Origin: a virus
Lineage: Duplodnaviria; Caudoviricetes
Length of the DNA stretch: 31,780 bases
Strand: one strand, 5' to 3'
Virus record (IMG/VR): IMGVR_UViG_3300009441_000021
Location: 1 to 31,780 of that record
Under the pieces are notes generated by a model. It ran no database searches and had not been told where the DNA came from. It was given only the letters and a program-made list of their open reading frames with translations. Positions 11,078 to 31,780 of this stretch are shown here, piece by piece (position 1 is the first letter of the stretch; each line of letters starts with the position of its first letter). The translations under genes were made by a program, and so were the position numbers.

Positions 11078-12532
11078 ATGTCAGACTTTAAACATATTAA
11101 CGAGTTTAGAAAAGGTTCAATTTTAAGTAAGATCAGTGAAGATCCAACTTATTTGAGTTTCTTTATGATGTTTGATGCAATAGACAGAGAACATTCACCA
11201 TTATTATCAGGACCAGCGGAGGAATATCTTAGACAATTTGTTGATCCTCCTGGATCAACGTCTGACAAACCTGGAAAACATGTTGCAAACTTACGAGCTT
11301 TCAAAAAAGTGTTACTTAAGATCAATAAAGAACTTCCATGGTTTTGGCAGAAACTAAATGGCTTAGAAGCTACACAAGAATATAAAGACATGTCTGAGCC
11401 ATTTAATGGGGCAGAAAAACCAAAAATAGAAATTGAATGCCTAGAAGAGAATGTTGAATTAACAGCATTAGGTTTAATGCAGCTTTACAGAACTGCGGTA
11501 TATGATTATAACAGATTCGTAGAGGTTTTACCAAAAAATTTAAGACACTTTAGAGTTTGGATCGTTATGTCAGAGGTTAGAACATTTCAACAAAGTATTG
11601 GCGCTAGAGATTTTGGTTTATATGGTAATTCAACAACGGCTGCGTCTGTGACAACGCCTTCAGGTTTAAGTCAAATCAAATCAGCTTTGGGTAAAGGTAG
11701 TGAAACACAGATTAAGTCGGTACCTGGTGGATTTGACGAGCCATTAGTAAAAAATTATTCGGCTGAGGCGAAACCGCATGTTATGATAGAATTAGGTCAT
11801 TGTGAATGGGAAACTGATTCTATAAAAGAAATGTTTTCTGATTTAAATAAACAACCTGAACTTAGAAAACCTAAATTGAGCTTTTATTGGAACACATCTA
11901 GTATTACCAGTAATAAATTTGGACCTAACATCTCGAGTCCAGAAGCCTCACCACTAATGCCTACTTCAAAGAAAGATGATGAGTTATATCCCAATACTCC
12001 ATTTAATCCACTTGCGAATATTCAAAACGCAATTAGTGATAAAGTTAATGGAATAGCAGATGGTCTAGTAAATAGATTTAATAATCTAAAGAACAGTTTA
12101 CCGGGCCAGGGCAATAATCCAATGGGTAGAGTATATCCAGAAGGTTTAACTGGGGCTGCGGCTACATTGGCCGAAGCTGGAATGGATAAAGTTAAAGCTT
12201 TATTTATGGATAATGTTCATGGAGCTTCTGGAGCATTAGGAAGTTTAGGAGATATTAATTCTGCTTTAGAAGCTGGTAGTATCAATGGTATTATGAATTT
12301 AGCTGGTCAATTATTTAAACCTAAGCCAAATAAACCGGCTAATGGTAATATGTCTCCACATGGAATATATGATCCAGCAATTGACAGTTCACCTGATGGT
12401 TTTATTAATGAAAAGGTATATGATCCTATTGCACAACAATCAAATAGTCAAACAATATCACCTGGTAGAATTCATGAACCGGGAGTAGATAGTAGTCCAG
12501 ATAATAGTATTAATGATAATGTACACGAGTAA
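11078..12532 (+). CDS. Putative tail-tube-like baseplate protein (gp54/gp19-like N-terminal half)
   Basis: PWFWQKLNGL...KIEIECLEE...LMQLYRTAVYD resembles the tube-fold core; located between hub and spike; low-complexity repeated C-terminus. Confidence 0.45.
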   Translation: MSDFKHINEFRKGSILSKISEDPTYLSFFMMFDAIDREHSPLLSGPAEEYLRQFVDPPGSTSDKPGKHVANLRAFKKVLLKINKELPWFWQKLNGLEATQEYKDMSEPFNGAEKPKIEIECLEENVELTALGLMQLYRTAVYDYNRFVEVLPKNLRHFRVWIVMSEVRTFQQSIGARDFGLYGNSTTAASVTTPSGLSQIKSALGKGSETQIKSVPGGFDEPLVKNYSAEAKPHVMIELGHCEWETDSIKEMFSDLNKQPELRKPKLSFYWNTSSITSNKFGPNISSPEASPLMPTSKKDDELYPNTPFNPLANIQNAISDKVNGIADGLVNRFNNLKNSLPGQGNNPMGRVYPEGLTGAAATLAEAGMDKVKALFMDNVHGASGALGSLGDINSALEAGSINGIMNLAGQLFKPKPNKPANGNMSPHGIYDPAIDSSPDGFINEKVYDPIAQQSNSQTISPGRIHEPGVDSSPDNSINDNVHE

Positions 12533-13245
12533 TGGCAGATGAACTTTTTCAAGATAATTTAAGAGATTCACATTGGTTAGGAGAAGTCGTAGTAAACGAA
12601 GATCCTTTACTTAATGGTAGATGTCGTGTTAAAGTTTATGGTAAATTTGATAAACTTGAGAACGATTCAATTCCGTGGGCAACTCCCATGAATAGAGATG
12701 CAGTGGGTTCTCATCATGTACCAAGAGTTGGTGACATAGTTGCGGTTAGATTTGATAATGGTAACATATATCATCCAGAATATTGGTTTCAAATAGATCA
12801 AAATGACGATTTAAAAACAGATATATTGGAGGCATCTGATGCACCACAAGATGTTATAAGTTTAGTATATGATGCTGAACGAAATGTAAGAATATATCAT
12901 TCTCCCGAGGATGGTTTGGTTATCACTCGTGGTAGTGGAGCTAAGGAGAGACCAATGATACAAATAGACGAAGAAGGATTCATTAAGATAAGCACAGATG
13001 CGAAAATGTTCTTAGACTGTGGTGATATATTCGTTTCAAATGAAGGTGAACCAGGAGCAGATGAGACAGAACCAGCAGTTAGAGGTCAATCTCTACAAGA
13101 TTGGTTACAAATGTGGTTAGACGATTATAATGCACATATTCATCCAACGGGAGTTGGACCATCAGGACCACCGATGCCGCCTACACCTGTAACTGTAGGT
13201 AAACTATCAAGTACACATATTAACTATCAACAAAAAGGTAAATAA
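12532..13245 (+). CDS. Baseplate central spike (T4 gp5 OB-fold / P2 gpV-like) with HxH apex
   Basis: WLGEVVVNEDPLLNGRCRVKVYG...IPWA...VPRVGDIVAVRFDNG OB-fold signature; short beta-repeat region; C-terminal NAHIHPTGVGPSGPP. Confidence 0.9.
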   Translation: MADELFQDNLRDSHWLGEVVVNEDPLLNGRCRVKVYGKFDKLENDSIPWATPMNRDAVGSHHVPRVGDIVAVRFDNGNIYHPEYWFQIDQNDDLKTDILEASDAPQDVISLVYDAERNVRIYHSPEDGLVITRGSGAKERPMIQIDEEGFIKISTDAKMFLDCGDIFVSNEGEPGADETEPAVRGQSLQDWLQMWLDDYNAHIHPTGVGPSGPPMPPTPVTVGKLSSTHINYQQKGK

Positions 13246-13247
13246 TT

Positions 13248-14948
13248 ATGCCAGCAATGTGGCCAACATTTATACCAAATCTAGCCGGCGATATCGCAGG
13301 GCAATCTTTCACTAAACCTGGAGGTGCAATGGTATCTTATGAATTACCTAAAGTTGGAGTTGATCAAGTGCCTATTTTTCCACCATCTACCGATTTAATA
13401 AAATCAATAAAACCAGGTAATCCACTTAACGCTGCATTAACTACTGATCCTACTTCGATGATAAATGCAATTAATCTTGCGCCATTAAGTGGAAGATATG
13501 ATTTTGGTGTAAGAGTCGCTGAAAGATATCTCGAAGCTGTGAAGGGTTTGGCAATGACACCATTTGGTGCAACACATACAAATAATCCAGCGGCTGAATT
13601 TTTGTTGAAGCAGGGATACGGATTAGTTTTTGAAAGACTACTAAAAGAAGGTGATATTCCTTTACAAGATCAAAAGGATGAAGATGGAAACATAATAGAA
13701 ATGGGTAAAGAATCTCACCCTGATTATGCTGATTTTTGCCCAGATCCAGTTGAAACACCAGATCCCGTTGAAGAACAAAAGAAACTAGATAAGAAATTTA
13801 ATAAATTCGTAGATGACTATAAGAGTGATTCCTTGATGGATTTAAAAAAGTTTAGATTTTTTGAATTTCCATGTTTGAGTGGTAATGAGACGCAATCCGA
13901 ATTAGAGAATCTGTTTGCTGCTAGATTGATAGAACAATATAAGACATCTAATGACAAAGCTGAATTTAAATTATGGGCAGAATGTTTGGGCTCTAAAAAA
14001 TATAAAGATAGTACTTTATTAATAAGTGATAAACCATATCCTAATATTAGTACATCGACCAGAGCTGACATATCGTCTGCCGGTTATAACTGGCAATCTT
14101 TAGCGGATAATGTGAGTGATTTATTTATAGCGGGTATAGAAGGTAATGGTCCTACATTAGATTGTCCATTGAATGAATGGAAAATTCAAGTAGCGTATGA
14201 TTTTGACCATAATCCTCCTGAAAATCCAAGCAAAAGACCTAAGATATTAACGTCCAATGTGGTAGCTACTTTTAGTTGGTATCCTGGTTTGAGGCAAGGT
14301 TCTTTTGCTTATATTAATGGATCTGCAGTTACTGCACCTAAGTGGATAAAAACTCCAAATTGGATTGAAAATGTATATGAAGAAAACGAATGGGAAAATC
14401 ATTGGCGTAAAATTCCAAATGCAATGAGCAATGCTAGAACTCCCGAAGATGTGATTGACATAAACCCAACAGCTGGCGGAACTATATTTAAATTTCAAAG
14501 ACAACAAGTAATAGACGCTAAGACTGCTGCGGAAGAATGCGATGATGTAGAAGAAGATAGCAACATAGACTATACTTGGCCAGGCGGTGATCCATATGAA
14601 GAAATGGCAGAAGTAACGATTGCATATTGGTATGCTTGTATTGTGAAACCGTTTGCACCTACACCATCAGCTTTGCCAGCATTAATACCAGCGCCATTGA
14701 CTGGAATTTATATACCAATATACTATGGTGGTAAAAAAAGATTAGCTAAAAATCTTAGAAAGGCTTGGAACACTGGAAAAACATTTAGTGTTATTCCTGC
14801 TCCACAACCACCTGCATTTGCAGTTGCAACAGCAGTTGCTGCAGCTTACGCATTACATTTACTAGAATTTAAACTATTATACTTAGGAGGTATTCCCACA
14901 CCGGTCGGCCCAGTTCCTATGGTTGGTTTTGTACCTGTTGTGTTCTAA
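13248..14948 (+). CDS. Hypothetical, probably virion/spike-associated protein
   Basis: 2 nt after the spike gene; Pro-rich hydrophobic N- and C-terminal segments (…LGGIPTPVGPVPMVG) flanking a hydrophilic middle. Confidence 0.6.
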   Translation: MPAMWPTFIPNLAGDIAGQSFTKPGGAMVSYELPKVGVDQVPIFPPSTDLIKSIKPGNPLNAALTTDPTSMINAINLAPLSGRYDFGVRVAERYLEAVKGLAMTPFGATHTNNPAAEFLLKQGYGLVFERLLKEGDIPLQDQKDEDGNIIEMGKESHPDYADFCPDPVETPDPVEEQKKLDKKFNKFVDDYKSDSLMDLKKFRFFEFPCLSGNETQSELENLFAARLIEQYKTSNDKAEFKLWAECLGSKKYKDSTLLISDKPYPNISTSTRADISSAGYNWQSLADNVSDLFIAGIEGNGPTLDCPLNEWKIQVAYDFDHNPPENPSKRPKILTSNVVATFSWYPGLRQGSFAYINGSAVTAPKWIKTPNWIENVYEENEWENHWRKIPNAMSNARTPEDVIDINPTAGGTIFKFQRQQVIDAKTAAEECDDVEEDSNIDYTWPGGDPYEEMAEVTIAYWYACIVKPFAPTPSALPALIPAPLTGIYIPIYYGGKKRLAKNLRKAWNTGKTFSVIPAPQPPAFAVATAVAAAYALHLLEFKLLYLGGIPTPVGPVPMVGFVPVVF

Positions 14949-14958
14949 AAAATAATAG

Positions 14959-14966
14959 GATATATA
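14959..14966 (+). promoter_or_regulatory. Putative late-promoter box GATATATA upstream of the S1 gene
   Basis: Exact 8-mer in the 45-nt gap, beginning 35 nt before ATG 14994. Confidence 0.65.
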
Positions 14967-14993: not shown

Positions 14994-16286
14994 ATGAACA
15001 ACGAAAAAAACAAAAGAATTAGAATTGGCGAAACCAAAACTAATCAAACACCAGTTGAAGAACTAGACACTATTGTTGAAAACTTAAAAAAAGAGGAAGA
15101 TTCTGGACCTGAAGGTGCAGAATTCTTTGATGAAGCCGGAGAATTTGATTGGGATGCATTTGAAGCTACTTGCCCATCAAGAACGCGAAAACACAATCCA
15201 CATATAAAGACACAGAATGGAGATAAAGTATTTTCTAGGGAAGTATATGCTCAAGAAATGTATGACATTCTTTCAGCACATGACGAATCATTAGGAAATG
15301 TTATAACTATTCTAAACCCAGGAGAAATCCATGAGGGTAAAATATACGCAGTTAGTTCTGAGTTTATTAGTGTAGATATAGGTTACAGAGAATTAATATA
15401 TGTAAAATATGATAAAGAACCTGTAGAAGTTCAGTCATTAAAACCAGGAGACGAGACTGCAGTATTAATTACTCAGCTAAGTAAAAACTCTCATGTACTA
15501 GGAAGTATTAATGGAGGTGTTAAACACAAAGTGTTTATGGATCTTAGAGAAGCTGTCGAATCAGGAGGAACTGCATGGATTGGTACAGTTACACATATGA
15601 TTGAAAACGGAGGTTACATGGTATTAGTACAAGGAATTGAGTGCTTTATGCCAGGATCACTTGCAGGAATTAATAAATTGCATGATTTTGGTTCTATTAT
15701 TGGAACAGAAATGTATGTGGTTCCGGTGAGTTTCTCACCAGACCGAGGTACATTGGTTGTTTCACACAGAAAATACTTACAAGCATTGATACCTAGTGAA
15801 TTAGAGTCATTAAAAGAAACACAAGGTGAAACTCTCACTGGAAATGTGACAGGTACTGCTAAATATGGTGTATTTGTAGAATTTAACAAGTGTTTAACTG
15901 GAATGATACATAATAATGATTTAGACGAAGACACATTAGTTAAATTTAAAGCTAGGGATATTAAACCAGGTGATGAAATTTCATTTATGGTTAAAGATAT
16001 TATTAGTAATACTAAAATTACACTAACACAAAAGGCCAATATAACTGTTAATCCTTGGTTAGACATTCAATCAAGATATCAGATTCCTTCTGTAATACAA
16101 GCAACTGTAAAGACTAAGAAAGATTACGGTTTGTTTATTACAATAGAAGAGGGTGTCACTGGGCTGCTACATGTCAGTGAATTAAGTGAAGAAGTAATGA
16201 GTGTATTTAAATCAGGAGATCCTATTACAGTACAGATTACTAGGATCGATGTTGACTCTATGAAAGTCTTCTTGAAAATGCCTTAA
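14994..16286 (+). CDS. rpsA: Phage-encoded ribosomal protein bS1 homolog (four S1/OB domains, D1-D4)
   Basis: Colinear with bacterial S1: D1 PGEIHEGKIYAVSSEFISVDIG; D2 GGYMVLVQGIECFMPGSL...LVVSHR; D3 GETLTGNVTGTAKYGVFVEF...GMIHNNDL; D4 NPWLDIQSRY...DYGLFITIEEGVTGLLHVSEL. N-terminal EFDWDAFE. Confidence 0.92.
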   Translation: MNNEKNKRIRIGETKTNQTPVEELDTIVENLKKEEDSGPEGAEFFDEAGEFDWDAFEATCPSRTRKHNPHIKTQNGDKVFSREVYAQEMYDILSAHDESLGNVITILNPGEIHEGKIYAVSSEFISVDIGYRELIYVKYDKEPVEVQSLKPGDETAVLITQLSKNSHVLGSINGGVKHKVFMDLREAVESGGTAWIGTVTHMIENGGYMVLVQGIECFMPGSLAGINKLHDFGSIIGTEMYVVPVSFSPDRGTLVVSHRKYLQALIPSELESLKETQGETLTGNVTGTAKYGVFVEFNKCLTGMIHNNDLDEDTLVKFKARDIKPGDEISFMVKDIISNTKITLTQKANITVNPWLDIQSRYQIPSVIQATVKTKKDYGLFITIEEGVTGLLHVSELSEEVMSVFKSGDPITVQITRIDVDSMKVFLKMP

Positions 16287-16307
16287 TAACTATTGCAACG
16301 AGAGCGT

Positions 16308-16315
16308 GATATATA
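16308..16315 (+). promoter_or_regulatory. Putative late-promoter box GATATATA in the 5' arm of a hairpin (16306-16333)
   Basis: Exact 8-mer beginning 35 nt before ATG 16343; GTGATAT pairs with ATATCAT (16327-16333). Confidence 0.6.
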
Positions 16316-16342
16316 TTGAAACGGTAATATCATAATCTTAAT

Positions 16343-17653
16343 ATGCAAAAATTAACTATAGATTCTCCGAGAGAATCAATATTGAATGCGGCACTCATGG
16401 GTGTTGAGTTTGAATTCTATTCTGATCTCGATCTAGAAGTAACCAGAAAATCTCTGGCAAAACTTCTAGATCGAAAGATTAGATTAGAAGATAAAGCACA
16501 TAGTGATTTTGAACCTTCAGCTGAAGAGTTTAAAATAGAACCAGATATGTCTGGTGGTAAAGGACTAGTAGAACTAGTGACTGGGCCAATCCCTTATAGA
16601 AACGCCAGAATAATGGTTATCAAAGTGCTTGATTGGATATCTAAGAATGGATATACTAATGATAGAGCATCAATACACATCAACCTATCATTTGATAAAA
16701 AATATCTAGAAGACCGAGACACTGTCTTGAAAATGAATGTTCTTAAATTCATTCTAGAGTTTGATGAACAACAAGTTTATAAGTTATTTCCTGAAAGAGA
16801 AAAATCTGCGTATGCAAAAAGTGTTAAATGGGTGATGCCAAAATGGGAATCATTTCATTTTGATGCCAATCAAGTAGCTTCTACTAATTTTAAATTTGCC
16901 GATACTAAATATTACGGAATAAACTTTTCTAAGAAGGAGAAGAATTATTTAGAGTTTAGATATATTGGTGGAGTTGATTATGAAAAGAAAGTTGATGATA
17001 TACTATATCTAACTGAGAGTTTTTTAATGCAAATGTGGAAATTATGTAATGATGCTAGATTTAGTAATGAAAATAAAATTGAACTTCAAAGAATTTTAAA
17101 TAGGAATAAACCTGTTTCTGATATGCTGAAAGATTACTCAGCAGTTACAAAGAATTGGCCAAATATACAAATACTGACCGATTTACAAGACAATCCCACA
17201 ATCATAAAGGTGCACTGGGAGAGGTTTAAATTGAGAGTAATGGATTTATTAGTAAATGGATCAATGACTGATGGTATTATTAATTATGACTCCGACTATG
17301 GTGCTGTTCAGATCAAGGATGGTAAATTTCCAACTGTATACTTTTTAGAGAATTTTGAATTTATTGATTGCGAAATAGCAGGAAATGTAGATAATTCAAG
17401 TTTTTATAATTGTGATATATCTGGATCAGCTATTAAGTGGGGTAGTTTATACCAAGGTACTAAAGTAAAAGAATCCAAGGTAGAATCTAGTTACACACAT
17501 GGTAGCTGTGAGTTAACTAATTGTTATGTTGCGGGTCGTGATACCATGTTTAAAGGTAAAATGATAGGCGGTATATTCAGAGAAGGTTTTATGACAAACA
17601 GTGCTAGATTTGAAGACACTGAAATAGTAGTAAGTAAAAAAATAAAAGAATAA
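16343..17653 (+). CDS. Putative amidoligase (COOH-NH2 ligase, Amidoligase_2-like) with C-terminal beta-helix-like repeats
   Basis: Motifs in family order: GVEFEF, PDMS, ELVTGP, SIHIN, KYYGINF, LEFR. Last ~110 aa show ~5-residue periodicity (IDCEI..VDNSSFYNCDISGSAI..VKESKVESSY..LTNCYV). Confidence 0.8.
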   Translation: MQKLTIDSPRESILNAALMGVEFEFYSDLDLEVTRKSLAKLLDRKIRLEDKAHSDFEPSAEEFKIEPDMSGGKGLVELVTGPIPYRNARIMVIKVLDWISKNGYTNDRASIHINLSFDKKYLEDRDTVLKMNVLKFILEFDEQQVYKLFPEREKSAYAKSVKWVMPKWESFHFDANQVASTNFKFADTKYYGINFSKKEKNYLEFRYIGGVDYEKKVDDILYLTESFLMQMWKLCNDARFSNENKIELQRILNRNKPVSDMLKDYSAVTKNWPNIQILTDLQDNPTIIKVHWERFKLRVMDLLVNGSMTDGIINYDSDYGAVQIKDGKFPTVYFLENFEFIDCEIAGNVDNSSFYNCDISGSAIKWGSLYQGTKVKESKVESSYTHGSCELTNCYVAGRDTMFKGKMIGGIFREGFMTNSARFEDTEIVVSKKIKE

Positions 17654-17654
17654 A

Positions 17655-18497
17655 ATGAGTGAAATTAGAAGCGGTTCGAATAATGATCTTACAACTGGAA
17701 GGTATTTTGATCCTAATTGTTTAAATGCATTTTTAGAAGAATTAGGTGATGACATTACCGGAGCATGTATGGTACCTATTAATTTACCACAAAAAGAAAT
17801 TATTAATATAATCAAAAGAGCTAAAAAATGGTTCTATAAGAAGTATGAGTATTCTGTAAAAGAAAACTATTACCATATACCACATTCTATATTTAGTACT
17901 GATTATTTTAAAAGTCGTAGAACACTTAATCTACCTGGCCCTAGTTTAGATGGTGGAGGTGGAGTATATTCAGTATATGGATTGTATGACCTTCAGTCAG
18001 GATGGAATGGCGGTGGAGGTGGAATGGATGTAAGATTCGATTCTGGTTCTGATTTTTCTATGGACAGAATGTTGTTTAGAGGAATGTATGAAGGTGGAGG
18101 AATGTCTGAAGCTGCGGAAGAATTACAATATTATGTATTGAATGCTTCTATGCAAGATTTAACTAGGCAAATATTAAACAATCCTATTTCTTATAGTTAC
18201 TCTAATTTAACTGGAGAATTAAAGTTCATGGGTGATACACCAAAAGGTGATGTTATATTAGAGTTATATGAAACTATACCTGATTGCGCGCTATATTCCG
18301 ATGAAATATTCTTCAGATATGTTAGTGCTAAAGTAAAACAATCTATTGGTTCTAAATTAGCGATCTTCAAGTTTGCGTTACCAGGTAATGTAGATTTTGA
18401 TTATGATGCTATTAAATCAATGGGTGACGATGAATTATCTGCAATTGATGAAGAGATCAAGGGCGATGAAGGCGTTGACTGGATGATGCATTCGTAA
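17655..18497 (+). CDS. Neck/head-completion protein, T4 gp13-like
   Basis: IIKRAKKWF near the N-terminus; C-terminal RYVSAKVKQSIGSKLAIFKFALPGNVDFDYDAIKSMGDDELSAIDEEI matches the gp13 pattern Y..A..K..G..L.KF...LPGGV.......A..E...LEEE. Confidence 0.8.
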   Translation: MSEIRSGSNNDLTTGRYFDPNCLNAFLEELGDDITGACMVPINLPQKEIINIIKRAKKWFYKKYEYSVKENYYHIPHSIFSTDYFKSRRTLNLPGPSLDGGGGVYSVYGLYDLQSGWNGGGGGMDVRFDSGSDFSMDRMLFRGMYEGGGMSEAAEELQYYVLNASMQDLTRQILNNPISYSYSNLTGELKFMGDTPKGDVILELYETIPDCALYSDEIFFRYVSAKVKQSIGSKLAIFKFALPGNVDFDYDAIKSMGDDELSAIDEEIKGDEGVDWMMHS

Positions 18498-18506
18498 ATA
18501 AATAGA

Positions 18507-18514
18507 GATACATA
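18507..18514 (+). promoter_or_regulatory. Late-box variant GATACATA (similar TATACATA at 18882-18889)
   Basis: ATACATAAATAA precedes both the gp25-like and gp6-like starts. Confidence 0.35.
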
Positions 18515-18519
18515 AATAA

Positions 18520-18876
18520 ATGGAATTATATATAAAATATCTCAGTGATCCTAACTATGACGAAACTCAAGTTCAGACTAATGATGAAATAGAAATGTTA
18601 ATCACACAGATTCAAACTGTTTTATTTACAAATACAGGTGAAGTTATGGGAAGTCATAATTTTGGTTGTAACTTGGAAGAACTTATATATGATTTTGGAT
18701 CTAGCGCACACAATATAAAAGCTGTAATTACAGATCAATTGAATCAATATTGTCCACTTGCTAGTAAATATAACTTGGAAGTTAAGATAGATTTTGTAAA
18801 AGGTGAGGTTAGGGATATGGCTTTCATAGATATTACGATAGATAGTAGATATGCTATAAAAATAAGCATGCAGTAA
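18520..18876 (+). CDS. Baseplate wedge subunit / sheath initiator, T4 gp25-like
   Basis: QIQTVLFTNTGEVMGSHNFGCNLEELIYD...ITDQLNQYCP matches the gp25/GPW signature; 118 aa; directly upstream of gp6-like gene. Confidence 0.88.
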   Translation: MELYIKYLSDPNYDETQVQTNDEIEMLITQIQTVLFTNTGEVMGSHNFGCNLEELIYDFGSSAHNIKAVITDQLNQYCPLASKYNLEVKIDFVKGEVRDMAFIDITIDSRYAIKISMQ

Positions 18877-18893
18877 AAAAGTATACATAAATA

Positions 18894-20723
18894 ATGGCAG
18901 AATTAAAATTTTTAAGTACAATTAGAACCGGAGCAAATGCCATAAAGGCAGATGCTAGGACGTATATTTCTAGGGTTTACAACAGGGCAGAAACCCTGTT
19001 TACCGTTGCATCGCCGTTCGCTCAGATAGTAAGTGTCTTATCAGAAATGATGGATCTTATTATGTTCTATATAGAGGATTCTGTTGTAGAACAAAACATA
19101 TACACTGCTCAACAGCCCGAGTCAATATATGGTATGTCTAGATTAACTGGTCATGATGCTACAAGAGGTTTTGCATCAACTGGTGAAATTACATTTAGAT
19201 GGAAGCCCGGTGCAGATATGGTAAAGATTGCTGGAAATACATTAAATATAGAAGGTAGATCAAAACTTAAATTCGAAGCAAATGGTTTAACTTATACATT
19301 ATTAAATTCAGTAGATAGATATAAATTACAAAAAACAAATTACAGTTCATTTAAAACTGCTATCATTCAGGGTGAATTTGAATCACAAACTGTAACGTCT
19401 AATGGTAACAAATTACAATCATTTAATATAAATACCGGTGGAATAACTGATCACAGTAAAGTCAGTGTCAGCATTAACGGTGAAAAATGGATGAAGCATG
19501 AATCTCTATATGATTTGTTATCTAATGAAAAGGCATATTTAATTAAAACCGGAATTAGCGGAGGATTAGATCTTTATTTTGGAAATGGTTCTTTTGGTAT
19601 GATTCCGCCGTTAGGCGCTAGTATTGAAGTAGAATATGTAAAACACGTTGGTCTTGCCGGTAATTTAGATGATTCACCAGATTTAGCAATCAAATGGGAT
19701 GGATCTGGTACAGATTCAAACGGAACAGAACATGATTTGAATGAATTTTTAGATGTGACTATTACTTCTTCACCTAAAATGGGTAGTGATAGAGAAAATA
19801 CAAAATTCACTAAAATAATGACACCATTGGCTAGTAAATCATTCGTACTAGCAACACCAGATAATTATGAATACTTCTTATCAAGATACAACATGTTTTC
19901 GTACATAGATGCATATAACACAACGGATGATCAATACCTGGATGACGATAATGTTATTTATATTTTCGCAGTACCTGATATTAAAAAGAAATTATCTAAA
20001 AATCAAGATTATTTTAGCATGCCTCAGGAAGAAATGTTCTTTGATCAAAGTGAATATGATGCGATGCAAAAAGTACTTGAAGATAGCGGACAACAAATGG
20101 TAACTACAGAAGTTGTATTTGTTAAACCAAAGGTAAGGTATTATAGCATTGACATCAATATTAGGTATTTCGAAGGTTATACTAGGGATGAAATTTATAC
20201 AAGTGTTAGAACTAAACTTTCAGATTATTTACTAAACATCACTCGAAGAGATAAATTGCCTAAATCCGATATCATTTATATATTGGAGGATGTTGCTGGA
20301 ATCGATGCGGTAAATGTTAAGTTTATTTCAGAGACAGAGGAGACAGCTTTAAAGAATGGATATTTTGAATCTATTAACGTTAGTGTTATTCCACAAGAAC
20401 CAGTAACGTTGGAGACTGTTGGTAATGGAAAACAAAAATATGTTTTCTTTAAGAAAATAGAAGATATAAAAGTGGTTCCTGTTGATAAGTCAATTGATAT
20501 ACCATATAGTGTAAAAGGTCTAGACCAGTGGGGAGATATTATTATGGATAAAGAAGAGGTTGCAGTATTCAGAGGTGGATGGCAAGATAGAGATGGAGAT
20601 GTAATAGAGGATGATGTATTAATAAATGCTGAAGCAGCAATTAGTATAAATTTTGAATCAAATCCTGTTCCTAGAACAATCTACACTAGAGTACAGGCTG
20701 GAAATAGAAAGGCACTTAAATAA
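18894..20723 (+). CDS. Baseplate wedge protein, T4 gp6 / baseplate-J-like
   Basis: EQNIYTAQQPESIYGMSRLTGH; LYFGNGSFGMIPPLGASIEVEY...G..GN; GSDRE; LATPDNYE; VAGIDAVNV. Confidence 0.88.
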   Translation: MAELKFLSTIRTGANAIKADARTYISRVYNRAETLFTVASPFAQIVSVLSEMMDLIMFYIEDSVVEQNIYTAQQPESIYGMSRLTGHDATRGFASTGEITFRWKPGADMVKIAGNTLNIEGRSKLKFEANGLTYTLLNSVDRYKLQKTNYSSFKTAIIQGEFESQTVTSNGNKLQSFNINTGGITDHSKVSVSINGEKWMKHESLYDLLSNEKAYLIKTGISGGLDLYFGNGSFGMIPPLGASIEVEYVKHVGLAGNLDDSPDLAIKWDGSGTDSNGTEHDLNEFLDVTITSSPKMGSDRENTKFTKIMTPLASKSFVLATPDNYEYFLSRYNMFSYIDAYNTTDDQYLDDDNVIYIFAVPDIKKKLSKNQDYFSMPQEEMFFDQSEYDAMQKVLEDSGQQMVTTEVVFVKPKVRYYSIDINIRYFEGYTRDEIYTSVRTKLSDYLLNITRRDKLPKSDIIYILEDVAGIDAVNVKFISETEETALKNGYFESINVSVIPQEPVTLETVGNGKQKYVFFKKIEDIKVVPVDKSIDIPYSVKGLDQWGDIIMDKEEVAVFRGGWQDRDGDVIEDDVLINAEAAISINFESNPVPRTIYTRVQAGNRKALK

Positions 20724-30146: not shown

Positions 30147-31780
30147 ATGAGTGCAATTCAAAGTATACTAATTATAGATACAGGTCAAACAGACGCTGTA
30201 TCTGCTTGTTCCTTTTCGGGAGCAGGCTCAACGGGAGTACAATTTAATAGCAACTCACTTAAACCGGCTAATCTAGATATTCTTTACACTGATTACGGAA
30301 ACCTAATAGTATTTAATGGTGGTGATCAATTCTTTAAGGAAACTGGCGCTAACGGTACAGAAACTTTTAAAGTGGGCGTCGACGGTGCAGTTTCTGAAGT
30401 AGCATCATGTGCGATTCCAGATATTACTGCTCCTGTTATTACTGTAACTGGAAACAATCCTGTTACTGTTGAATTAGGAACGACTTATACAGACGCTGGA
30501 GCCACTGCTGATGGTGGAGAAACAGTTACGGCAGCAGTTACACCAACCGGAACTGTTGATACCTCAATAGTTAGAGAGTATACAATTACATATACGGCAA
30601 CAGATGCTGTAGGAAATATAGGAACAGCCACCAGAACGGTTAATGTTGTTGATACAACGTTACCTTTACTTACTGTAAATGGAGATAATCCAGCTACGGT
30701 TGAAATGGGAGGTACTTATACAGATATTGGTGCAACTTCAGATGGTGGTGAAACCGTTACTTCTACTGGAACTGTTGATACCTCAACCGGTGGAGCGTAT
30801 ACCATTACTTACTCAGCTACTGATGCTGCAGGGAATATAGGAACAGCAACAAGAATAGTGAATGTTGTTGATAATACTGCACCTATAATTACTATAACTG
30901 GAGATAATCCTGCTACTGTTGAATTAGGAACAACATATGATGACGCTGGAGCTACCGCTGATGGTGGAGAAACAGTTACTTCTACGGGAACAGTAACTAC
31001 TTCTATTGTAGGAACATATACGATTACATATACGGCAACAGATGCCAATAACAATACAGGAACTGCTACTAGAACAGTGAATGTGGTTGATACTACTGGA
31101 CCTATAATTACCATTAATGGTAATAATGCACCTACAATAGAGGCTGGTACCAGTTATACAGACGCTGGAGCTACCGCTGATGGTGGAGAAACAGTTACTT
31201 CTACAGGAACGGTTGATACTACTACCGTAGGAACTTACGATATTACATATACGGCAACAGATGCCAATAACAATACAGGAACTGCTACTAGAACTGTTAC
31301 AGTTGTAGATACAAGTCCACCAATTATAACACTAAACGGTGACGCAACATTAAATATAAATGTGAATAGTACATATGCCGATCCAGGCTATACTGCTATA
31401 GATATTCACGATGGGGATATTACTTCAAATGTTCTTGTCACAGGAACAGTAAATACTGCTACTGTAGGAACATATACGATTAAATATAACGTCAGTGACG
31501 CTGTTCCACTCCCTGCAGTTGAAGTGACTAGAACTGTAAATGTAAATGATTCTTCCGCGCCAATTCCTGTAGATGCTGCATATGATGTAGTATGGAATCA
31601 AACATTGGCAATAACTTTAGTGGCTAATGACAATGTAGACACTCCTATAGCTTTAACGTATACTATAATAACTCAGCCAACTAGAGGTAATCTTATTTTT
31701 GTGGATAACAATGCTGTTATTTATGAACACACAGAGAGTACTATTGGATCAGATTTTTTCACGTTTAAAGCAACGGATAC
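30147..31780 (+). CDS. 3'-truncated Ig-repeat adhesin-like protein (five DUF5011/HYR-like domains then a Big_9/cadherin-like domain); not in ORF track
   Basis: Translated by hand from ATG 30147: MSAIQSILIIDTGQ...DITAPVITVTGNNPVTVELGTTYTDAGATADGGE...YTITYTATDAVGNIGTATRTVNVVD (x5)...LTYTIITQPTRGNL...DFFTFKATD; no stop before the window end. Confidence 0.9.
   Translation, partial: MSAIQSILIIDTGQTDAVSACSFSGAGSTGVQFNSNSLKPANLDILYTDYGNLIVFNGGDQFFKETGANGTETFKVGVDGAVSEVASCAIPDITAPVITVTGNNPVTVELGTTYTDAGATADGGETVTAAVTPTGTVDTSIVREYTITYTATDAVGNIGTATRTVNVVDTTLPLLTVNGDNPATVEMGGTYTDIGATSDGGETVTSTGTVDTSTGGAYTITYSATDAAGNIGTATRIVNVVDNTAPIITITGDNPATVELGTTYDDAGATADGGETVTSTGTVTTSIVGTYTITYTATDANNNTGTATRTVNVVDTTGPIITINGNNAPTIEAGTSYTDAGATADGGETVTSTGTVDTTTVGTYDITYTATDANNNTGTATRTVTVVDTSPPIITLNGDATLNINVNSTYADPGYTAIDIHDGDITSNVLVTGTVNTATVGTYTIKYNVSDAVPLPAVEVTRTVNVNDSSAPIPVDAAYDVVWNQTLAITLVANDNVDTPIALTYTIITQPTRGNLIFVDNNAVIYEHTESTIGSDFFTFKATD
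30420..31547 (+). repeat. Five tandem Ig-like domain repeats (231, 219, 219, 219, 240 nt)
   Basis: Units begin at in-frame GAT (Asp) codons at 30420, 30651, 30870, 31089 and 31308; units 3 and 4 share long identical nucleotide runs. Confidence 0.92.

Follow-up and report, generated by a model that had tools for sequence, protein, structure and literature searches.

A four-domain homolog of ribosomal protein bS1 conserved in a clade of T4-like aquatic jumbo phages

Aquatic jumbo phages of one T4-like clade carry, as a core gene, a trimmed and divergent homolog of ribosomal protein bS1. The copy described here lies in a 31,780-nucleotide stretch of DNA (the window) from a large uncultured aquatic phage, in which the S1 gene is placed among tail genes. 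Late in infection the encoded protein probably engages the ribosomes of the host, a reading we favor because the residues for ribosome docking and for RNA binding are both kept (see below). If the protein is indeed incorporated, a core gene of a widespread clade of aquatic phages would replace a central component of host translation initiation, and if it also selects mRNA, the product would be a virus-made specialized ribosome. The family offers residue-level, testable evidence on whether phage S1 proteins are true ribosomal S1, and F. johnsoniae provides a tractable system, for which bS1 has been purified and both cryo-EM and in vitro assays of initiation are established (PMC13000457; PMC9976891).

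Phage S1 genes have been in print, unvalidated, since 2013-2020. They were noted in viromes (PMC3877843) and left out as ambiguous by Mizuno et al. (PMC6375957). Al-Shayeb et al. (2020) then described "possible rpS1s" in SD-poor huge phages, commenting that true rpS1 is hard to confirm and allowing that it may act either on the ribosome or away from it (PMC7162821); the first-pass annotation of this DNA also pointed to S1-like genes in huge phages. A survey of the open-access literature found no paper with an experimental test of a phage bS1 or an account of its anchor, insert or promoter. Neither PMC12123416 nor PMC12880540 mentions bS1, the word "ribosomal" does not occur in the moraphage paper, and no S1 entry was found in the available portions of the supplementary files and discussion of Al-Shayeb et al., whose Table S8 may list members of the clade.

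What kind of S1 protein is encoded here? The NCBIfam rpsA models span residues 80-429 with a best E-value of 1e-46, residues 97-424 align colinearly with residues 7-338 of E. coli bS1, and Pfam S1 rises above its cut-off in two stretches only of the protein. An AlphaFold2 model, built from a 35-sequence alignment (mean pLDDT 71, pTM 0.38), contains four OB barrels, whose strands lie at 112-171, 195-258, 280-345 and 366-428, together with helices at residues 53-64 and 85-100, and the C-terminal end comes two residues past the final D4 strand. The four S1 domains colinear with D1-D4, ending directly after D4, that had been read from the letters are thus recovered by profile and by model. The N-terminal extension was described less exactly: its EFDWDAFE motif is present (residues 50-57), but about 85 residues precede the anchor helix, not the roughly 100 first suggested.

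The models, the alignment and a Foldseek search of the AlphaFold2 model all describe tandem S1/OB domains from D1 onward with no fused catalytic domain, and bS1 chains are the top Foldseek matches. Non-ribosomal S1 proteins (PNPase, Tex, RNase R, CvfD/GSP13 and NusA) were considered as candidates and rank well below the rpsA models and bS1 chains, which supports assignment as a true bS1 homolog. On the other hand, the protein falls under every full-length rpsA cut-off (best 159 bits vs 524), scores 121 bits against the cut-off of 368 for the four-domain model PRK06676, and at 430 aa (366-447 aa in the 120 homologs listed) is shorter than the about 590-620 aa of a six-domain protein. Because it has neither a full-length equivalog score nor six domains, its sequence marks phage S1 as a trimmed, divergent bS1 homolog rather than a standard RpsA. 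No PHROGs family matched the protein in a profile search. The features of the gene and its surroundings are collected in Table 1.

Table 1. Positions in the window of the phage S1 gene, its parts and its neighbors
Feature	Position	Strand	Basis and remarks
gp5-like baseplate OB-domain gene	12532..13245	+	Pfam/PHROGs; two genes upstream of S1
Upstream neighbor, 566 aa, no family match	13248..14948	+	Pfam, PHROGs, locus comparison
GATATATA box, likely phage late promoter	14959..14966	+	Conserved upstream of S1
Four-domain bS1 homolog, 430 aa	14994..16286	+	Profile, alignment, AlphaFold2 model, Foldseek
Variable low-confidence N-terminal tail, residues 1-43	14994..15122	+	pLDDT <50 for 1-40; 1/43 columns invariant
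Bacteroidota-type F-x-W helix motif, residues 49-57	15138..15164	+	F51, W53, E57 invariant, 35 sequences
Phage-specific insert of ~25 residues (58-82)	15165..15239	+	Spacing, core motif, complex model
Anchor helix, residues 85-100	15246..15293	+	Y85/M89 align with E. coli F5/F9
D1 and linker helix	15321..15563	+	AlphaFold2 model, residue map; D128/R132 = E. coli D39/K43
D2, with phage-specific loop at residues 218-229	15576..15818	+	44/85 columns invariant
D3	15831..16076	+	Y291, F294, H306, K341 conserved; model, residue map
D4	16089..16277	+	Y378, F381, H393, K424 conserved; Pfam, model, residue map
Second GATATATA box (16308-16315) within predicted hairpin over amidoligase leader	16300..16339	+	Folding
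Amidoligase_2-like gene, 436 aa, directly downstream	16343..17653	+	Pfam at cut-off; fixed neighbor
Neck (Ad2), gp25-like and gp6-like baseplate genes	17655..20723	+	Pfam/PHROGs

Relatives of phage S1 are encoded on 174 IMG/VR stretches, and the protein search gave 1573 matches, from which the motif and length counts use the 120 listed. In the best 80 of the 174 loci (56-100% identity, many of them near-duplicates), amidoligase-like and neck genes lie 3' of S1 in 80/80 cases. A check anchored on the neck gene found S1 in 75/75 loci with at least 2.7 kb of upstream sequence, the other 5/80 being left out for an upstream flank of <2.7 kb, so the gene order proves to be shared across related phages. 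The placement first proposed, between a spike-associated gene and the neck/gp25/gp6 genes, is correct in outline, with a gp5-like gene upstream and neck, gp25-like and gp6-like genes downstream, but the 566-aa orphan and the amidoligase-like gene intervene. In L076-L078, one to three genes are inserted between the homolog of the 566-aa protein and S1, and the box still stands before S1. The amidoligase-like protein, whose Atlas clusters are 99-100% viral, has a pentapeptide-like C-terminal part, and its gene also occurs in six huge-phage records.

The S1 gene is under purifying selection, with a whole-gene dN/dS of 0.04-0.15 (9 pairs, synonymous sites partly saturated), and its GC content is the same as that of its flanks. 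D2 is the most conserved domain, and constraint is loose only at residues 1-43. The gene set of two partial relatives is T4-like and includes a gp55-like late sigma (its gene occurs in G001), and from CheckV values the genomes of the relatives are estimated at roughly 270-310 kb.

How might such a protein engage the ribosome? In E. coli, residues F5 and F9 of bS1 stack on F32 of uS2, and D39 and K43 form salt bridges (PMC4288201). The N-terminus of F. johnsoniae bS1 associates with uS2 and uS8 (PMC13000457; PMC9976891), with an aromatic F-x-W helix at residues 11-20 touching uS8 (PMC13000457). The uS2-anchor residues have clear counterparts in 35 phage sequences: F5 corresponds to Y85 in 35, F9 to L/M/F89 in 35, D39 to D128 in 34, and K43 to R132 in 35. 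The F-x-W motif was found in 22/22 Bacteroidota S1 proteins and 0/58 other bacterial S1 proteins (80 fetched), and a slightly different pattern detects it in 119/120 phage homologs listed. VSH[RK] is present in 120/120 phage homologs listed, and VSH in D2 of 21/22 Bacteroidota S1 proteins; the resemblance to Bacteroidota S1 that was first noted holds for the N-terminal motif. The distance from the F-x-W motif to D1 is 73-76 residues in the phage proteins (108/120 listed were measurable) versus 48-51 in hosts (20/22 measurable). The core motif of the insert occurs in 120/120 phage homologs listed and in 0/80 bacterial S1 proteins, and a similar stretch is seen in Lak.

A three-chain complex of phage S1 residues 40-192 with uS2 and uS8, using proteins of an uncultured Flavobacteriales genome as stand-ins, was modeled with a score of 0.64, against 0.01 for the best control. 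The 0.64 mark is met by 116/157 solved and 2/215 mismatched pairs, a calibration that is only roughly applicable to a three-chain job with custom alignments. At least 84% of contacts agree between runs, with a partner pLDDT of at least 72. The predicted interface involves residues 51, 53, 56-57, 77-81, 85-93 and 132-134, and the contacts of lowest error are a predicted pairing of insert residues 77-81 with residues 31-35 of uS2. Structure prediction therefore agrees with docking on uS2, but considering that the E. coli S1-S2 complex has already been solved, the score may reflect memory of that structure.

If the docking residues are retained, it would seem natural to assign them to the ribosome, but the S1 residues that contact uS2 also serve Q-beta replicase (PMC4288201), and host S1 stimulates T4 RegB up to 100-fold (PMC3014915). 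Perhaps phage S1 is instead an off-ribosome RNA chaperone or the cofactor of a phage enzyme, with the docking residues kept for that partner. The loop at residues 218-229 of D2 (15645-15680) is nearly invariant in the clade, similar in huge and Lak phages, and its motif is found in 0/80 bacterial S1 proteins. Since D2 is the most conserved domain and this phage-only loop its most conserved element, there is a hint of a partner other than the docking site, and the dual possibility left by Al-Shayeb et al. (PMC7162821) accommodates such a function. Nevertheless, the near-universal retention of the F-x-W helix, whose contact in the host is uS8, and the passing score of the uS2/uS8 complex both argue for the ribosome, and we regard an exclusively off-ribosome role as unlikely.

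The RNA-binding surface is similarly well preserved. Residues Y205, R254, Y290 and R341 are NMR reporters of RNA binding in E. coli S1 (PMC6237739), and they map to Y291, K341, Y378 and K424 in phage S1. Among 35 sequences, Y205 corresponds to Y/F in 35, R254 to K in 35 and R341 to K/R in 35, and Y290 is Y in 35. E. coli R252 aligns with N/D, so that 4/5 of the D3-D4 RNA-binding residues are kept. E. coli lacking D5-D6 of bS1 is viable, and D1-D3, which still binds the 30S subunit, is the minimal functional unit (PMC3858243); the four-domain phage form and the three-domain Lak form fit these results. They also bear on the idea that phage S1 is a decoy, which would sit at the site on uS2 and dampen translation in the host instead of promoting initiation. 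The absence of D5-D6 and the extra predicted contact strand could be read in that way, but E. coli is viable with D1-D4 (PMC3858243), the RNA-binding residues of D3-D4 are conserved, and a late-type box suits support of translation better than shut-off. We consider the decoy quite improbable.

The leaders of the phage genes are A-rich and SD-poor. With an assumed anti-SD probe, SD-like pairing was counted in 1/26, 8/131 and 8/130 leaders, compared to 14.8% of background. In F. johnsoniae, bS1 stimulates SD-less initiation (PMC13000457; PMC9976891), and it was originally proposed that the phage protein biases ribosomes toward SD-less, A/U-rich structural messages. However, Bacteroidia mRNAs also lack SD sequences (PMC13000457), so a preference of this kind would not by itself favor phage over host, and that part of the proposal is not supported.

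When would the protein be made? The number of GATATATA copies in the window is at chance level (5 vs 3.66 expected, with 32/100 shuffles reaching 5), but 4/5 of them lie in intergenic DNA (446/31780 bases), just 5' of gene starts. The box is found in 32/32 distinct upstream sequences of S1 and 34/34 of the amidoligase-like gene, and upstream of none of 11 other neighboring genes in the relatives. It is strand-biased (32:0 in G001 and 1:26 in G003, two relatives) and precedes 23/167 ORFs in the former and 18/166 in the latter. A scan of 23 boxed proteins identified 7 head/tail proteins (portal, protease, major capsid, sheath, tube, head closure and one virion protein), 3 with other functions, among them a ribonucleotide reductase subunit in G001, and 13 without a PHROG match. 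Genes without the box in the relatives include replication genes, which were picked by eye, and also terL and two structural genes. For comparison, the late box of phage T4 reads TATAAATA (PMC3014915). Because the box is conserved, strand-biased and positioned 5' of head/tail genes, it likely behaves as a late promoter, and late expression of S1, as proposed in the first-pass annotation, is a reasonable inference.

Metatranscriptome contigs cover the S1 gene in 4/4 runs from 2 studies; in one study, a contig at 14971-16302 starts 5 bases past the box and a second contig ends at 16302. Contigs of this type cannot show the start or level of a transcript or the RNA origin of the material, and they are not counted as evidence.

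Folding of the S1 leader revealed no extra structure relative to shuffles (mean z -0.2). The hairpin 3' of S1, at 16300-16339, places the amidoligase box in its 5' arm and the leader of that gene in its 3' arm; for most of the 30 distinct relatives examined, its folding energy is -9 to -15 kcal/mol (mean z -2.9), and an amidoligase transcript starting beyond the box is nearly unstructured when folded. The arrangement resembles the occlusion of read-through mRNA from the T4 e, soc and I-TevI genes (PMC3014915). RNAalifold yielded no consensus structure from a 22-row alignment of the hairpin, and we therefore make no claim of covariation.

Taken together, a ribosomal role for phage S1 could proceed as follows. 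The protein would be made late from the box, a candidate gp55-type late promoter. Its F-x-W helix, anchor helix and D1 would bind uS8 and uS2 of the small subunit, docking either instead of host bS1 or next to it, and D3-D4 would bind SD-less phage leaders and so recruit phage mRNA. The benefit would most likely be that ribosomes are kept loaded with S1 for the bulk synthesis of virion proteins once host rpsA expression ends; selectivity for phage mRNA is possible in such a scheme but is not required.

Packaging of S1 in the virion, as was initially suggested, and its injection with the DNA to capture ribosomes at once would also go with its late-type box and its fixed place amid baseplate and neck genes. 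Yet 0/120 of the S1 homologs listed have a capsid-targeting-like leader, and in 5/7 distant loci there is no adjoining neck or baseplate-wedge gene, S1 closing the structural block or lying outside it. These results speak against packaging, which we judge very improbable. The leader pattern is our own, assembled from leaders in the relatives, on the CTS concept (PMC9026906); in its loose form it is found in 10/228 and 15/214 ORFs of two relatives (L103-L118), as a short initial stretch similar to the capsid-targeting sequences of T4. Finally, some phage-labeled records do hold bacterial rpsA, but a mis-assembled or decaying host gene is a negligible prospect here and is ruled out by the common order in 80/80 independently assembled loci (best 80 of 174), along with the purifying selection, the matching GC content and a long phage-only branch.

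Where, then, does the phage gene come from? In a phage-collection search with 37 matches, six huge-phage records (LR756500-LR756504 and LR745206) and Lak phages contain homologs with 27-40% identity, and identity to cellular S1 is 25-31%. A quick tree of D1-D4 (60 rows, with long-branch warnings) has a branch of 3.8 substitutions (SH-aLRT 100) with 14/14 phage rows on the same side, lying outside Bacteroidota. A constrained clade of phage plus Bacteroidota (30 rows) has a p-AU of 0.55 and so is not rejected, and domain by domain the phage protein is no nearer in identity to Bacteroidota than to E. coli. Comparison with RpsA upholds bS1 homology. The scan for cellular relatives covered 1/64 of genome parts (600 stretches, best 80 kept), and closer cellular S1 proteins may therefore exist.

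By sequence comparison, the homologs of the huge phages, the Lak phages and the present clade form one long-branched phage group. The huge-phage "possible rpS1" proteins share with clade S1 their one-branch homology, the D2 loop and SD-poor genomes, and LR756500 has the gp5-S1-amidoligase-neck order of the clade, with small inserts. The "possible rpS1s" of Al-Shayeb et al. have up to six domains (PMC7162821), whereas clade S1 has four domains and the F-x-W anchor; Lak S1 has three domains with anchor and insert, and the five LR proteins examined are without F-x-W. Bacteroidia bS1 resembles phage S1 in D1-D4, the anchor helix, the equivalents of D39/K43, the F-x-W motif and the RNA-binding residues, but phage S1 lacks D5-D6 and has the ~25-residue insert before the anchor helix and the phage-only D2 loop. 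Phage S1 belongs to the reported huge-phage S1 group, with a predicted action like that of bS1. The bS1 of cyanophage PhiMa05 (PMC13157829) is likewise phage-encoded and a proposed replacement for the host protein, but it belongs to a six-protein set and groups with Vampirovibrio ribosomal proteins; it is absent among the 37 phage-collection matches to phage S1.

The F-x-W motif, the SD-poor leaders, the recorded Prevotella host of Lak and the matches of a second ribosomal protein, bS21, all point to Bacteroidota as the likely host. The bS21 gene is found in 2/5 long partial contigs of relatives, and bS21 of G001 matches Bacteroidota only (4/4) in a plasmid collection, which is narrow. In two relatives it is flanked by dnaJ-like and phoH-like genes and sits on the coding strand (1468-1659 in L081 and 1492-1674 in L082). 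A bS21 match also occurs in five of the six huge-phage records that bear S1. Chen et al. (2022) described bS21 as an initiation protein encoded among structural genes in ~300-kb aquatic Bacteroidetes myoviruses, with a model of late substitution (PMC9723584), a close parallel to the scheme above. In those phages bS21 lies antisense beside terL/portal, in contrast to its position in the clade, and the main text of that paper makes no mention of bS1 (PMC9723584).

Could these elements belong together? In a broader reading, which we hold to be doubtful as a whole, S1 would represent an ancient vertical bS1 lineage of Bacteroidota jumbo phages, rebuilt as a ribosome-reprogramming factor in which the insert, the D2 loop and bS21 all have parts. 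The insert would add a strand to uS2 and thereby out-compete host bS1, the D2 loop would recognize late transcripts or the late transcription machinery, and phage bS21 and S1 would together make specialized ribosomes that prefer phage late mRNA.

Two further boxed genes deserve mention. One, in G001 (L103 10600-11553), has a capsid-targeting-like leader and a RimK-like family match (E 8e-9), annotated as "ribosomal protein S6 glutaminyl transferase", which may make it a third connection to the 30S platform. The other, at 30147-31778 of the window, encodes five bacterial Ig-like repeats before it is cut by the contig end, and is probably a virion surface protein.
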